Positions 3,829-62,897 of a stretch of 64,000 bases of DNA are shown in pieces. This DNA is from a phage, in sequence record PZ445448.1; one strand, written 5' to 3'. Position 1 is the stretch's first letter. Every line of letters begins with the position of its first letter. The translations under genes were made by a program, and so were the position numbers. The notes under the pieces are model-generated. The model did no database searches. It saw nothing but the letters and a program-made list of their open reading frames with translations, and was not told the DNA's origin.

Positions 3829-3924
3829 CACAGGTTGAAAGGTGTGCAATTATAACTTCATAAAACGGGAGGACGTGATGAACGAAGAAAACTGGGATGT
3901 ATAACTAACAGGAGGCCACTGCCC

Positions 3925-17878: not shown

Positions 17879-18022
17879 TACAACAAGTTACATGGTCAGG
17901 GGCAATAAAGCCCCTTGATCACATAAAAATTATGCTATCCCTGGTTGACAGGGATCGGCAGTTTTGCTATATTCTTTTTTGAAGGGAAGTTGTAAGAAAA
18001 TTAACTAAGAGGTAAAAACACC

Positions 18023-18442
18023 ATGAACATTAAATCTAATAATCCGGCATATAGCTTTGATAACGCTTTTTGTCACGGTCCGGCGGCGAAAGGATTCGAA
18101 ATCGATGGTAAACTAATTATTGTCAATGTTGACGGGGAAGAGGTTGCAGTATATCCGGTGGCAGACGTAAAAAGCCGTTTACAATGCCGCATGGATGTTA
18201 CCGCCTATCAGCTTGATCCGGTCCGCATAGTTGCCCTGGTCCTGGAAGAAGAAATTAAAGCCATGCACCATAGCAACAGATTTATTGGTGACGCGCAGGA
18301 TAATATGAAAGTATGCCGCCATAAAGTTAATGAAGTGCTTAAAGAGTACGGCTATAAAGATCTTATGATCAAACGTGAGGAAAAATTCCGCTACCGTAAC
18401 GACCTGGCAAATCGGATTTTTGAAATATACGAATCATTATAA
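18023..18442 (+). CDS. hypothetical protein
   Basis: TTGACA..TATATT promoter; AAGAGGTAAAAACACC-ATG. Confidence 0.55.
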   Translation: MNIKSNNPAYSFDNAFCHGPAAKGFEIDGKLIIVNVDGEEVAVYPVADVKSRLQCRMDVTAYQLDPVRIVALVLEEEIKAMHHSNRFIGDAQDNMKVCRHKVNEVLKEYGYKDLMIKREEKFRYRNDLANRIFEIYESL

Positions 18443-18461
18443 TTTTTTAACTGAATTATCA

Positions 18462-18486
18462 AGGGGCTTAGGCCCCTTTCTTTTTG
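18462..18486 (+). terminator. intrinsic terminator closing the plus-strand array
   Basis: AGGGGCTTAGGCCCCT followed by TTCTTTTTG. Confidence 0.65.
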
Positions 18487-18489
18487 TCT

Positions 18490-20950
18490 GCTCTTCCTCC
18501 TACCACAAACGGCCCAGCCTGGCAAGTGGAATAATTGACTAGCCATCAATCCCACACACTGTACAAATATACATGGAAAATAACTATTGCATAATTTTTC
18601 ATTGTGTGGTAGCAGGTCCATTTTTACCCGTTTTCTCTCTCAAAATTGCACGTAATGCCGCTATTGCACAAAATTTAACCTGATGCACATCTTCAATATC
18701 TTGTCAACAACTAAAAATCTTTATAAGTCATACACTTACACACTCACAAAAGCGTGTTCTACGTGAAAAATCGAGTATAACTATAGCCGCCAGATCTCAG
18801 AATTTACGTACGCTCACCATTCTATAGTCTGCTAAGTATTTATTCCAACCATGGAATAACGGAATAGTCAATACCTGCATAAAATAATTATTCGTGTAAA
18901 CTGCATAACATAAATCAGCTCAGGTGTCAACATTTTTCGTAAACAGTCCGAAATTGTCACGGTGAGTTATCATAAACAGAGAAATATTTAGTCGTCTAAT
19001 GTTTACTGTACATTACTATACTGACTGGAATCATTAGATGACTAAGAGAAAGATAAGAAATAATTAACAATACAATTATTTTATCTGTAACAATAAGGCA
19101 ACTATGCAAACGAATGGCATGGCGCGACGGAGTCGCGACATAATATAAAAGCAGTAACCATCACCCCCGTGATAGTTTGTCTGCAAACTATTAATCAGAT
19201 CATAGTTGCCTTGTATTTAGTTAATCATGACATAACAAGCAAGGCAACTATAGATCTTCTAATAGTTGCCCTGCTTTTATATTATGTCATAGAAACACCC
19301 GAAGGGGTGACCAAAGGTCACCTGGCATGGCCAGTGAAAGATTATTAACTTGTTAATTGTTAACTTGCTAATTGTTTTCATGCAAACGAATGTCATGGCT
19401 TATCCTATCTGTGTAAACAGTCAAGGTGTAAACTATCCAGGCGTAAACAATCTATACGTGAACAGTGAAACATGAAATAATAACAGTCGTTATTGTGTCG
19501 AAAGTGTATAAGGTGTCATAGTATGTCAGACAAGTTTTTCTCCTCTTTGTCAAGTGCTGCATGAAAAATTTACAAGCTTGTATGGTAGCATTTTTGCTGC
19601 CCTGTTTACATTCAGTTGTGTATGTATAACCCTTGTTGTGTGGGCGTTTAGACGTCTAGACGGTTGGAAGTCCGCAGGTTAATATCTAATCTATTGGCTG
19701 CTAACTATATCCCACACAAATAGTAAGAAATATAATTGTTATGTGCGTAAACAGTAACTCATGTTATCAATCCCTGTATGTATCGCCAGTGGTGCGCATA
19801 ATGGGTATTATGTTAAATTGCCCGTAATGATAACTATTCTCACAATGATAGGTATTCTCATTCACTCCCACAAGATAGGTTGCAAATGTTGTGCCACTGT
19901 GTGAACGGCCTCACCTATTAATTTGCCTCACTGCCTCGATATTTGAGAATTGTTATAAGAATGAGAAGTATTCCCATTTCGTCCGCCTGGCAGCACTCCA
20001 GTCGCTACCGCTCATGACAGGGCAGAACTAGACCCTCTTCAGATATTTCTGGCTGACTCTTCAGGCCTGTGTGGGAAAAGCCAACCTCTCCGGCGGCGGG
20101 GAGGGGTTTGTCAGGAAAATTGCAGGTCAATTAAAAAATTTACGTGGTATATGAAGCGCTCTTCAGGTAAGGCATGTATTATGGGATGAAACCCTCTTCA
20201 GGCAATGATATTTGTGGGTGTGATATTTGCTGGAAAGCCAGATATGACGGGACTCCCGGCGGGGCAGGGGTAGTACAGACAGGGGAAATATGGAGGATGT
20301 AGTTGGGGGAGTTGATCAAACAGGTAGAGTATGGAATATGTTACAAGTATGTTAAATATGGAGGGTGGATATCTGTAGGATTTATGTGTAAAATCAAAGA
20401 CTTAAGTGGTGTTGTGGTATTTTCTATAAATAATTCAAGTTTAATAGGTAATATTTGTCTCTATCCGCTTTGTGTGGTAAACAAATTCAGATGGTGTTGG
20501 TTTACAAGTGTATACATAATATACAAATTAAAGATACAAGAAACCCCCCTCCCCCTTCGGCTACCATTCACCTTTTCCTCTGACTGGTACTTAAACACTT
20601 ATTCAGACTCTTCAGGTTATCACCCATATATCATATGGCAGTGACTGGTGTCCTCCGGCCCCTCTTTCGTCACCCGTCCGCTTCGCCATGCTAATGCCAT
20701 AGCCAATGGTTCGGTTGTTCACCCTGTTCACTCAGGTGTATCTCCATACCCCTTCAAACCGAAGAGAACAGAAAACCCGAATTACTCGGTAAAAGAAAAG
20801 AGAAGAACTTAATTTTATCAGGATAGGCAAGAATGTCAAGGCATGACTGCTCACTAAACAAGCAAACAGTCATGTGTGGGAGGTAAGTGATTGTGGTGGT
20901 AGGAAATTTAGTTGAAAGATGTGTTATAGGTGCTCCCAGCACTTTAGCCG
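18490..20950. repeat. 2.4-kb gene-free repeat-dense region (GTAAACAG iterons, AAGGCAACTAT sites, CTCTTCAGG repeats)
   Basis: no ORF with SD on either strand; multiple short repeat families. Confidence 0.6.
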
Positions 20951-20966
20951 GGTAGCTAATTGTGTG

Positions 20967-21182
20967 TCAGTCCAGTGGTTCATCACCTACTTCACTGAAA
21001 TCAATGTTCATGGTCTCCTCCCAACCATCAATCTCAGCACCAGAGTAGAGATCTTTAGGACTTACTCCCAAAGCATCAGCAACAGAGTCCATATTTAACA
21101 CCTCTGGCAGGTATGATTTATCGAATTCAAGGTAAATCAGGCCACGAGTATTGTCAGCTCCACCAAATATTTCTATCTTCAT
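20967..21182 (-). CDS. hypothetical small acidic protein
   Basis: AGAGGAGATTTC-ATG on minus strand. Confidence 0.45.
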   Translation of the reverse strand: MKIEIFGGADNTRGLIYLEFDKSYLPEVLNMDSVADALGVSPKDLYSGAEIDGWEETMNIDFSEVGDEPLD

Positions 21183-21303
21183 GAAATCTCCTCTGGAAAT
21201 GAGAGTGTGAACAGGGTTTTATACGTTCCGATGCACAGGAATTATGCACGTTTTCCTCTTCAGGCCATGCTTTAGCATGAGGAACCTGTGTGGGCTCGGT
21301 GCT

Positions 21304-21516
21304 TCATAGTCTACCACCCCTGAACTCTTCGTGCTCAGGCATAATAGAGAACCAGATATCTACGATGTCTTCCCACGTTAGGTCATCAGCCTCAGGATCT
21401 ACCTGGAGCAAAGATGGAGAATCTTCAGAATCGAAGTTTTCCTCTTGCACTGGCTCAGTCAAGGGACATATAGTCACTCCTTTGGATGTCTCTTCAGATG
21501 CATGCGTGTTTATCAT
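21304..21516 (-). CDS. hypothetical acidic protein (internal start of a longer ORF)
   Basis: acidic C-terminal half; upstream half has atypical composition. Confidence 0.3.
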   Translation of the reverse strand: MINTHASEETSKGVTICPLTEPVQEENFDSEDSPSLLQVDPEADDLTWEDIVDIWFSIMPEHEEFRGGRL

Positions 21517-62084: not shown

Positions 62085-62159
62085 GCCCTGTTAGCTTAGT
62101 GGATAAAGCAGCGGCCTTCTAAGCCGTTGACACTGGTTCGAGTCCAGTACGGGGTGCCA
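62085..62159 (+). tRNA. tRNA-Arg (anticodon TCT)
   Basis: cloverleaf folded by hand: acceptor GCCCTGT/ACGGGGT, anticodon loop CTTCTAA, T-loop TTCGAGT, encoded CCA. Confidence 0.75.
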
Positions 62160-62163
62160 AATT

Positions 62164-62250
62164 GGGGAGTTATCCCGTAGAGGTAGCGGTGTAGACTGTA
62201 AATCTATTGTCATTGCGACTCGGGTGGTTCGACTCCACCACTCCCCACCA
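62164..62250 (+). tRNA. tRNA-Tyr (anticodon GTA), long variable arm
   Basis: acceptor GGGGAGT/ACTCCCC, anticodon loop CTGTAAA, T-loop TTCGACT, CCA. Confidence 0.7.
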
Positions 62251-62364
62251 AATTTATATTTTTAGATGCATAAATAATACAGATAATGGCATTGATATTT
62301 ATCGTCGTTTATACTAGTCACTAACTGCTCGAAAATCAGTGTCATTATCAGTATAATTTATAAA

Positions 62365-62455
62365 GGAGGGTAGGGAGCAATGGTGCTCAAGCGGTCTTGA
62401 AAACCGTCCCGTTGAGGATGACTCGATGATGGTTCGATTCCATTACTCTCCGCCA
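62365..62455 (+). tRNA. tRNA-Ser (anticodon TGA), long variable arm
   Basis: acceptor GGAGGGT/ACTCTCC, anticodon loop CTTGAAA, T-loop TTCGATT, CCA. Confidence 0.65.
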
Positions 62456-62553
62456 CATTGTTGACCTTGTAATTAAGCGAAAGCCGGAAGCAGAACCGGA
62501 TTATCAAATGTTACAGTCGTCATCGCCGACTAGCAACATGGTCAACATACTGA

Positions 62554-62650
62554 GCTAGGTAAGCCCTTTGGCAAGGGCGAGGATTTTTAATCCTGAAAAT
62601 AGACGAGGTAGTCGTTGAATACATAGGTGGTTCGATTCCATCACCTAGCA
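62554..62650 (+). ncRNA. 97-nt tRNA-like element with irregular anticodon region
   Basis: perfect 7-bp acceptor GCTAGGT/ACCTAGC, D-arm, T-loop TTCGATT, but about 10-24 nt too long and no clean anticodon stem. Confidence 0.35.
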
Positions 62651-62657
62651 CCTTTTT

Positions 62658-62733
62658 GCTGATGTAGCACAATCGGTAGTGCAATTGATTTGTAATCAAT
62701 AGGTTGTAGGTTCAAGTCCTGCCATCAGCACCA
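62658..62733 (+). tRNA. tRNA-Thr (anticodon TGT)
   Basis: acceptor GCTGATG/CATCAGC, anticodon stem ATTGA/TCAAT loop TTTGTAA, CCA. Confidence 0.8.
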
Positions 62734-62734
62734 A

Positions 62735-62809
62735 GGCCCTGTAGCTGGAAGGTTCAAGCAAGCGACTCATAATCGCCAGACGGTGGTTCAATTCCACCCA
62801 GGGCCACCA
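62735..62809 (+). tRNA. tRNA-Met or Ile2 (anticodon CAT), elongator type
   Basis: acceptor GGCCCTG/CAGGGCC with G1-C72, anticodon loop CTCATAA, CCA. Confidence 0.7.
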
Positions 62810-62820
62810 AATAGTAAATA

Positions 62821-62897
62821 CTCCGCGTAGCTCAGCTTGGTAGAGCGCCTGATTTGGGATCAGGAGGTCGAGTGTTCGAATCACTCCGTGGAGACCA
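62821..62897 (+). tRNA. tRNA-Pro (anticodon TGG)
   Basis: D-arm GCTCAGCTTGGTAGAGC, anticodon stem CCTGA/TCAGG loop TTTGGGA, T-loop TTCGAAT, CCA. Confidence 0.8.

Follow-up and report, generated by a model that had tools for sequence, protein, structure and literature searches.

At the concatemer junction of bacteriophage T7, genes are followed by a hairpin-forming inverted repeat, an array of short repeats and the terminal repeat, and to our knowledge T7 is the one phage for which the regeneration of the second repeat copy at such a junction is understood, if only in part. During T7 infection, a hairpin form of DNA that includes the terminal repeat has been found, according to a later article that cites Chung & Hinkle 1990 (PMC4281155). 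The Escherichia coli phage rV5 encodes a T7-like DNA polymerase A and a gp4-type primase-helicase; in the paper describing it a gap between genes is drawn merely as a 'non-coding' box, and its authors expected bidirectional terminators in this gap and did not find them, noted a change of skew there, and could not locate the replication origin (PMC3606486). For the subfamily, short terminal repeats of 459-514 bp have been inferred, together with a T7-type packaging call for phage KPP-1 (PMC7471380, PMC9862379). Here we describe a predicted folded element located in the corresponding gap of a Vequintavirus, an rV5-like E. coli myophage with a genome of ca. 137 kb, of which 64,000 nucleotides (sequence record PZ445448.1; hereafter the window, meaning the whole stretch that was analysed) were available. 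The element spans 19137-19288 (ca. 150 nt), with flanking parts at 19095-19399, and lies in a region of ca. 2.5 kb (18443 to ca. 20966) that contains the repeats and is free of open reading frames, between plus-strand genes that end at a strong terminator (18461-18478) and minus-strand genes on the right.

The layout around this element resembles that of T7, in that rightward genes, an inverted repeat, arrays of short direct repeats and a short direct terminal repeat are found in a phage with a T7-type polymerase and primase-helicase (PMC3606486); the inverted repeat is separated from the terminal repeat by a few hundred bp and lies at the genome end to which transcription of the genes is directed. 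Compared with the T7 site, the element is much larger (ca. 150-250 nt), has three or four helices as well as side hairpins that covary, and bears no sequence similarity to it; nor does it involve a phage RNA polymerase, a promoter or a pause site. Judging from the comparison of sequences and predicted structures presented below, it is the Vequintavirus member of a folded element that is conserved in at least three genera and carried by all sampled Vequintavirinae, the phage FV3 representing a secondary loss.

All the repeats that an initial annotation of the window had listed in this region are present, with small corrections of coordinates. AAGGCAACTATG (19095-19106), CAAGGCAACTATAG (19240-19253) and TAATAGTTGCCC (19260-19271) were confirmed, whereas CATAGTTGCCTT is located at 19201-19212 instead of at about 19199; the long inverted repeat is exact over 18 nt, the trailing ATAG that had been included in it falling outside; and the two copies of (A)TGCAAACGAATG(G/T)CATGGC are found at 19104-19123 and 19380-19399, the first of them ca. 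10 nt to the left of the position 19115 given before. The motif AGGCAACTAT occurs exactly at 19096 (plus), 19202 (minus) and 19242 (plus) and with one mismatch at 19262 (minus), so that its orientation alternates, all within 19096-19271. These three exact copies are the only ones on both strands of the 64 kb, and 13 matches are found when up to one mismatch is allowed, against 4.4 expected, a number that was reached in none of 100 shuffles. The 18/18 inverted repeat is the sole long inverted repeat with separated arms in the window, and the 20-mer direct repeat ATGCAAACGAATGKCATGGC (19104-19123 / 19380-19399) had no match in 100 shuffles. A stem-loop or cruciform prediction, which the initial annotation had suggested as a check, places the stretch far beyond its shuffles (z about -8 to -9), a 216-nt segment giving z = -9.2 as DNA, -8.3 as plus-strand RNA and -8.2 as minus-strand RNA. 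Chance does not explain the repeats.

A single folded DNA or RNA element is predicted, whose strands are supplied by the 18-nt inverted repeat together with the four AAGGCAACTAT sites. The stretch 19137-19288 can be read as one compound palindrome because of two features that had previously been missed: a fifth, degenerate site, GCAA[A]CTAT, at 19183-19191, and the paralogy of the two site-N10-site units, which form a 34-nt direct repeat (19186-19219 / 19246-19279) with 74% identity. Its predicted components are an 18-bp closing stem, a 26-nt left bulge with a side hairpin, an imperfect inner stem of ca. 32 nt and a 26-nt apical loop. The left arm of the closing stem (P1; GACATAATATAAAAGCAG, 19137-19154) is complementary at 18 of 18 positions to the right arm (CTGCTTTTATATTATGTC, 19271-19288), and the arms are 116 nt apart. 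Both arms are invariant in 17 relatives; the left one aligns to P1 of the covariance model of the sister genera described below, and the right one contains TATTATGTC, a motif shared with the repeat units beside the terminal-repeat boundary. The side hairpin ATCAC-CCCC-GTGAT (19160-19173), with an extra C in its loop in one relative, is located inside the asymmetric bulge (19155-19180). In the inner stem, 19181-19213 would pair with 19240-19271; in the left arm a 10-nt spacer separates the degenerate site 1' (GCAAACTAT, 19183-91) from site 2 (ATAGTTGCCTTG, 19202-13), and in the right arm a spacer of the same length separates site 3 (CAAGGCAACTAT, 19240-51) from site 4 (ATAGTTGCCC, 19262-71). 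As an alternative, the inner stem could refold into the local hairpins 1':2 and 3:4, the latter with 15 bp (19237-51 / 19262-76). Another copy of the GACATAA motif is present at 19229-35 in the apical loop (19214-19239). Outside the closing stem, a small G+C hairpin, GCGAC-GGA-GTCGC (19124-19136), invariant in 17 relatives, abuts the left arm, and site 1 (AAGGCAACTAT, 19095-19105, plus strand), 31 nt away from the stem, is an extra copy of the inner-helix strand that is invariant in 18 of 18 aligned relatives. The element is flanked on the left by DR1 (ATGCAAACGAATGGCATGGC, 19104-19123) and on the right by DR2 (ATGCAAACGAATGTCATGGC, 19380-19399), both on the plus strand.

The position of the element relative to the end of the genome can be established because the 459-bp terminal repeat reported, together with a fixed packaging start, for the Vequintavirus Gotham (PMC7471380) maps to 19529-19987 of the window, which places the element ca. 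240 bp to the left of the direct terminal repeat and of the junction in concatemers; in virion DNA it is located 240 bp inside of the right-hand repeat copy. The records of Pr121LW and ECP2303 are opened exactly at 19528/19529 (the slash marks the boundary here and below). Two arrays lie between the element and this point, both on the plus strand: a (Y)GTAAACAGT array (19410-19470), with a period of ca. 15 nt and a copy number that differs among relatives, and an array of TATTGTGTCA-like units (19488-19528), with a period of ca. 11 nt, that ends exactly at the boundary ...GTATGTCA/GACAAG and for this reason might be a terminase-binding region. TATTRTGTC has exactly three occurrences in the 64 kb, which are the two arms of the closing stem and the array abutting the cut site. 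The copy number in the arrays (19410-19528 and the homologous stretch in loci L001-L020) varies widely between phages that are otherwise 90-95% identical, and neither array is conserved in Mydovirus or Seunavirus.

The boundary itself is shared with the sister genera. For the Klebsiella phage KPP-1, a Mydovirus, sequencing coverage and PhageTerm led to the inference of a terminal repeat of 514 bp (PMC9862379). Over the final 25 nt of the repeat the two phages are recognisably alike (KPP-1 CTTGACAAGGAGAGAGAATTGTGT/ vs. CTTGACAAAGAGGAGAAAAACTTGTC/ on the minus strand of the window), and the boundary reported for KPP-1 coincides with that of the window; the shared boundary sequence shows that the plus strand of KPP-1 is the counterpart of the minus strand of the window. 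The boundary motif CTTGACAARGAG...TTGTGT/ is conserved across Vequintavirus, Mydovirus and Seunavirus, with the element always on the same side.

Similarity between the KPP-1 gap and that of the window is essentially absent at the DNA or translated level, with one high-scoring segment pair of 37 nt, and homology had therefore to be shown through structure and position. About 310 nt outside the boundary, KPP-1 carries a perfect inverted repeat of 21 bp, between whose arms lie 164 nt with nested hairpins (z = -10.5 for the DNA fold), and the element was also found in Mydo, KNP2, BIS47, Ro1, PVP-SE1, KE22, 4MG, GAP31 and one IMG/VR contig. The window has 241 nt between the element and the CTTGACAA...TTGTGT/ boundary, eight other genomes have 235-404 nt, and side and orientation are the same throughout. 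In nine Mydovirus and Seunavirus genomes a four-helix element of 202-255 nt is predicted, with a closing stem of 18-21 bp that is perfect in each genome and differs in sequence between genomes, its arms being 164-217 nt apart. P2, P4 and the hairpin of a variable domain have also changed on both sides among these genomes, and the element tolerates this variable domain as well as a 53-nt loop insertion. RNAalifold, applied to the nine sequences, gave 53 pairs, nine of which show compensatory double changes. Pairing is broken in only four cells, each of them at the end of a helix or within the variable domain; the covariation that the initial annotation had proposed to look for in related phages is thus present in the sister genera, with compensatory double substitutions in at least three helices. 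Throughout 27 genomes the closing stem is perfectly Watson-Crick and never contains a G.U pair.

A covariance model (R1) built from the nine Mydovirus and Seunavirus sequences only was used to search the window without filters (128 kb of strand). Its only significant match, 19135-19290, extended over the full length of the model (positions 1-203) and had 31.6 bits and an E of ca. 5e-5 on the minus strand, the plus strand of the same stretch giving 20.2 bits and the best unrelated match in the window 10.3 bits. R1 also matched 10 of the 10 other Vequintavirus loci that carry the element (25-33 bits) and gave no match in FV3, and the orientation predicted from the boundary always scored better. 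At the sequence level the lineages are linked by the junction together with the 3' closing-stem arm (GAGTTACTCCCGTGTTATTGTGTCGC vs. TGGTTACTGCTTTTATATTATGTCGC), and in both of them an extra copy of the inner-helix strand is located 20-30 nt beyond the closing stem, the KPP-1 copy being CCACGATTACGCGAACGA (3865-3882 of its locus, L023). Since homologous helices differ in sequence and yet keep pairing through compensatory double substitutions, selection acts on base pairing rather than on a fixed motif. In PVP-SE1 (L050, ca. 1290-1305), the 5' closing-stem arm (GCGACACTATAACAC) is duplicated, the additional copy being 94 nt upstream of the real one, and this extra arm offers an alternative 15-bp pairing with the 3' arm.

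The query 19040-19480 was matched by 119 phage records. Within Vequintavirus, the element was compared in an alignment of 18 relatives (17 when FV3 is left out). The segments 19089-19158 and 19259-19289 are essentially invariant in the 17 relatives, with one single-base insertion in one of them, whereas in the non-coding DNA next to them pairs of genomes differ by 5-50% and indels are numerous. Only two polymorphisms are found in more than three genomes, 19258 T/G (8 vs. 9 relatives), in the spacer between sites 3 and 4, and 19187 A/T (11 vs. 6 relatives), where the degenerate site has its extra, bulged base; 3 of the 17 carry an insertion of 33 nt in the apical loop. Both insertions and both common polymorphisms are located in predicted loops or in the bulge, as are most of the other rare changes, which fall in the apical loop, the part with most singleton substitutions, or in the bulge on the left. 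Helix arms are affected by three singletons (19213, 19242 and 19250), of which the one at 19242 completes the pairing of the local 3:4 hairpin. Such a pattern of variation fits a fold; the helices being invariant, no varying pairs are left within the genus in which compensatory changes could be compared. An inverton was also considered and rejected, as the asymmetric interior has one orientation in all 18 Vequintavirus genomes and in 9 to 10 Mydovirus and Seunavirus genomes.

A failure of conservation among relatives, which the initial annotation had named as the outcome that would speak against its reading, was not observed: only FV3 lacks the element among the 19 aligned or retrieved relatives that cover the stretch. 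The FV3 sequence (NC_019517 / JQ031132; L007, ca. 2560-2590) is without exactly 19124-19399 (276 bp), the deletion ending exactly at DR1, and keeps one copy of the direct repeat as well as site 1. Because its closest relative in the set (95.3% identity) carries the element, FV3 is best described, from these sequences, as a secondary deletion between direct repeats, which arose either naturally or through cloning or assembly in a project of the 2011 era. Deletion between direct repeats is the classic outcome for a palindrome that is flanked by them.

With regard to function, the reading that we favour, while giving it somewhat less than an even chance, is that the element acts in cis as a DNA structure in the processing of the concatemer junction. 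This T7-like role is preferred because the layout resembles that of T7, because the stem arms share a motif with the array at the cut site, because the pairs of the closing stem are Watson-Crick throughout, and because no promoter and terminator bracket the element. In a phage with a T7-type replisome, the fold would form at the concatemer junction when the stretch is single-stranded or extruded as a cruciform; it would then mark or prime processing, so that the DNA is cut at 19528/19529 and the second copy of the terminal repeat is regenerated, and the adjacent TATTRTGTCA and GTAAACAGT arrays could be binding sites for terminase or an accessory protein. Several points weigh against it. The details of the T7 precedent are cited at second hand. 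A fold-back primer needs a simple palindrome only, which leaves the covarying side hairpins, the variable domain and a GA/GA internal loop unexplained, and these features are more typical of structured RNAs. The better folding of the strand equivalent to window minus, a difference that depends on very few G.T pairs, hints at a single-stranded, strand-specific molecule. Finally, since FV3 is viable and plaque-forming without it, the element is not strictly essential, unless that record carries a cloning or assembly deletion.

It can also be the case, with a probability that we put a little lower, that the element is a structured non-coding RNA (ca. 150 nt in Vequintavirus, ca. 200-250 nt in Mydovirus and Seunavirus) made from the minus strand, excised at the closing stem and serving an accessory, regulatory or anti-defence function. 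It may be part of a longer transcript that crosses the terminal repeat and that would start, for instance, at the strong promoter 20839-20812, with excision as by RNase III on rRNA precursors. The multi-helix architecture with compensatory changes in several helices, the conserved GUUAC junction together with the GA/GA internal loop, and a variable peripheral domain that tolerates insertions of 33-53 nt would all suit an RNA, and dispensability in FV3 would suit an accessory one. The same strand is the more stable in both lineages (-68.2 vs. -60.0 and -72.7 vs. -61.3 kcal/mol, a difference that depends on very few G.T pairs), and the 3:4 helix has G.U on the minus strand vs. A.C on the plus strand in 16 of 17 relatives, a trend that is consistent in both lineages and rests on only two clear G.T cases. 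The promoter just mentioned, of consensus sigma-70 type (11 of 12 matches, with TG), is directed into the gap on the minus strand, and according to PMC3475682 a related rV5-like phage carries a non-coding RNA decoy. Against an RNA, no convincing or conserved pair of sigma-70 promoter and intrinsic terminator brackets the element in ten diverse genomes of three lineages; from the candidate promoter the element could be reached only on circular or concatemeric DNA. A terminator scan near the element flagged only the minus-strand sites 19177-19156 and 19309-19296, the latter a hairpin immediately upstream of the element in the direction of such a transcript, and the conserved ATGCTCAAAA of Mydovirus and Seunavirus is the T-tract of a terminator-like hairpin of the opposite strand. 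The absence of any G.U pair from the closing stem also argues against it, and so does the outcome of the Rfam 15 search, with no match at E up to 5 in window 18000-21500 and only chance-level hits (E up to 5-10) in the KPP-1 region. An origin of replication, either as iterons next to a structured AT-rich region or as a single-strand initiation signal for the gp4-like primase or the host primosome, is unlikely. The surroundings are indeed AT-rich (GC 0.38 vs. 0.43), the arrays of ca. 11- and ca. 15-nt period vary in copy number, the structure may be strand-specific, and the rV5 origin is unlocated, with a skew change noted in the gap (PMC3606486). Yet the turn of the cumulative GC skew follows the switch in the direction of transcription and marks convergence, not divergence; no DnaA boxes or initiator gene were found nearby, the flanking small proteins having no Pfam domain; the arrays lack conservation in Mydovirus and Seunavirus; and FV3 is without the fold.

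The initial annotation had seen in the same geometry an operator or origin with paired palindromic half-sites. The nested, alternating inverted repeats and their setting in a non-coding region of cis-regulatory type stand, whereas the independence of the half-sites does not, since compensatory evolution favours pairing. That the AAGGCAACTAT sites are head-to-head half-sites for a dimeric phage or host protein, possibly in combination with a bidirectional terminator between the converging gene blocks, is in our view improbable. The site-N10-site geometry does set the half-site centres about two helical turns apart and the site sequences are invariant in the Vequintavirus relatives; the 3:4 hairpin and the TTTTATATT that follows it were labelled a terminator by the annotators of both Murica and Alma, and bidirectional terminators were expected here by the rV5 authors (PMC3606486). 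In the sister genera, however, the helices keep pairing with a different sequence and the motif itself is not shared, while within Vequintavirus variation is mostly confined to loops and the bulge and a convincing promoter within 100 nt of the sites is lacking. The plus-strand genes already end at the strong terminator 600 bp upstream, and a terminator needs neither 70 invariant flanking bases nor an 18-bp closing stem with such distant arms. As for a palindrome of GGCAACTAT and ATAGTTGCC as a shared operator, a search of IMG/VR for GGCAACTAT-N(4-20)-ATAGTTGCC gave 26 hits, about the chance number by our own estimate, and all of them but two vequintaviruses were unrelated hairpins in unrelated contexts, so that this candidate was rejected. 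Least credible of all is a selfish or relic palindromic insertion without function, comparable to a miniature inverted-repeat element. The stretch 19124-19399 is bounded by 20-nt direct repeats and precisely absent from FV3, which retains one repeat copy, as such an insertion would predict; but the element is single-copy in each genome and its core was found neither elsewhere in the window nor in E. coli genomes or other phages, purifying selection on it within Vequintavirus is extreme, homologues with compensatory evolution occupy the same place in other genera, and the loss in FV3 is secondary. Conservation and covariation have already largely refuted this explanation.

Other described systems share single traits with the locus. 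In the terminase regions of lambda (cosB R sites with IHF), SPP1 (pacL/pacR) and P1 (pac), phased short repeats abut the cleavage site, as the 11-nt TATTGTGTCA array ends at the cut here, its motif recurring inverted in the arms of the closing stem; in those regions, in contrast, duplex DNA is bound by the small terminase, with no compensatory evolution of base pairs, and the arrays described here lack conservation outside Vequintavirus. Origins of the iteron type, for example lambda ori with four 19-bp iterons of internal dyad symmetry and an AT-rich region, are similar in having two-fold-symmetric units in AT-rich non-coding DNA, but only two full units are present here, they pair inside a closing stem, and what the genera have in common is pairing, not site sequence. 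The orientation of the AAGGCAACTAT sites alternates and they pair with one another, and neither an initiator nor a DnaA box was found; the GTAAACAGT array is iteron-like, but its copy number is variable and the sister genera lack it. The single-strand origins of G4 (oric), of the f1 minus strand and of rolling-circle plasmids (sso) are large, orientation-specific folds of 100-300 nt that act single-stranded and are often dispensable, properties that can be counted in favour of an origin; they belong, unlike this phage, to single-stranded DNA or rolling-circle replicons. The phi29 pRNA is, as an RNA made from the element would be, a multi-helix RNA encoded beside the genome end and tied to packaging, but it differs in fold, phage family and packaging chemistry (phi29 has a terminal protein and no terminal repeat), and expression of the element is putative. 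Rfam, which presumably includes the phi29 pRNA, gave no match for the element. In size and in its closeness to a genome end the fold is reminiscent of single-strand origins and phi29 pRNA. Beyond layout, the element shows the tested defining features of none of the T7 junction, cos/pac regions, single-strand origins or phi29 pRNA.

Several further features of the gap and its borders were recorded. From the element toward the terminal repeat, the order is a variable hairpin module, 15-nt tandem repeats, DR2, the GTAAACAGT array and the TATTGTGTCA array. The variable module (CACCC-GAA-GGGGTG, GGTGACC-AAA-GGTCACC and CTGGC-ATG-GCCAG; 19291-19335) is outside the conserved core, is present in only ca. 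6 of 18 relatives and scores as a terminator-like site on the minus strand. Within this hairpin-rich stretch of ca. 45 nt (19289-19340), ca. 52 nt match sequences on small E. coli plasmids (13-40 kb) at 82-88% identity, a similarity that suggests an exchangeable, terminator-like cassette. The tandem TTAACTTGYTAATTG repeats (19341-19370, plus strand) vary in number and sequence. Inside the terminal repeat there are three palindromic AATGAKAANNTATTCYCATT units (19826-19980), and similar AATGAGAATCATTC units are found in the KPP-1 repeat (L023, 3214-3267); by their sequence, both look like binding sites for a dimeric protein. Just to the right of the terminal repeat, CTCTTCAGG is repeated 5-6 times (20029-20203 and 20606-20616). 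The most conserved part of the whole gap is 20535-20900 (minus strand), with 0-4% pairwise difference among 18 genomes; it is located directly downstream of the near-consensus sigma-70 promoter at 20839-20812 (TTGACA-16-TAAAAT, with an upstream TG), contains a terminator-like hairpin at 20789-20777, and is a candidate non-coding RNA or leader, with no match in Rfam. The KOPS-like motif GGGNAGGG occurs three times in the gap (20098-20105, 20262-20269 and 20547-20554) and 10 times in the window, against 4.4 expected; binding of FtsK to these motifs was considered in view of a neighbouring 87-aa protein that is labelled 'DNA translocase FtsK' in one record, and was rejected, there being no Pfam support for that label. 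On the left, the last gene before the gap (18023-18442, 139 aa), located in a stretch (17895-18454) that is missing in ca. one fifth of the aligned relatives (L004, L006, L007 and L015), is for this reason an accessory gene bordering the terminal region; according to the Murica annotators its product contains a Rel homology domain; it has no Pfam hit. Far from the gap, in the tRNA cluster at 62085-62897, ARAGORN calls a 99-nt tRNA-like gene (62554-62652) of undetermined identity, with a four-base anticodon (atcc).

The rV5-like phages (Vequintavirinae) are widely isolated and used as candidates for therapy and biocontrol. Their 'empty box' now holds a terminal repeat and an adjoining conserved fold with compensatory evolution, and what is new is a conserved structured non-coding element at a phage genome terminus that is undescribed in the literature searched on rV5- and PVP-SE1-like phages (for origin, non-coding RNA and inverted repeat), where only the 'non-coding' box and the skew analysis of rV5 were found, and that has no Rfam family. 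A palindrome between direct repeats is a deletion hot spot, as FV3 may illustrate, and the element lies where engineers and assemblers tend to open or rejoin these genomes. It provides a testable handle on the resolution of concatemers or on a new phage non-coding RNA. The interest of the finding would be high if the element does regenerate the terminal repeat, and moderate otherwise. It could even be, although we consider this rather doubtful, that the element is the missing cis component, whether a self-priming DNA hairpin or a packaging or replication RNA, by which the repeat is regenerated and the cut site chosen in a whole subfamily of ca. 140-kb myoviruses.

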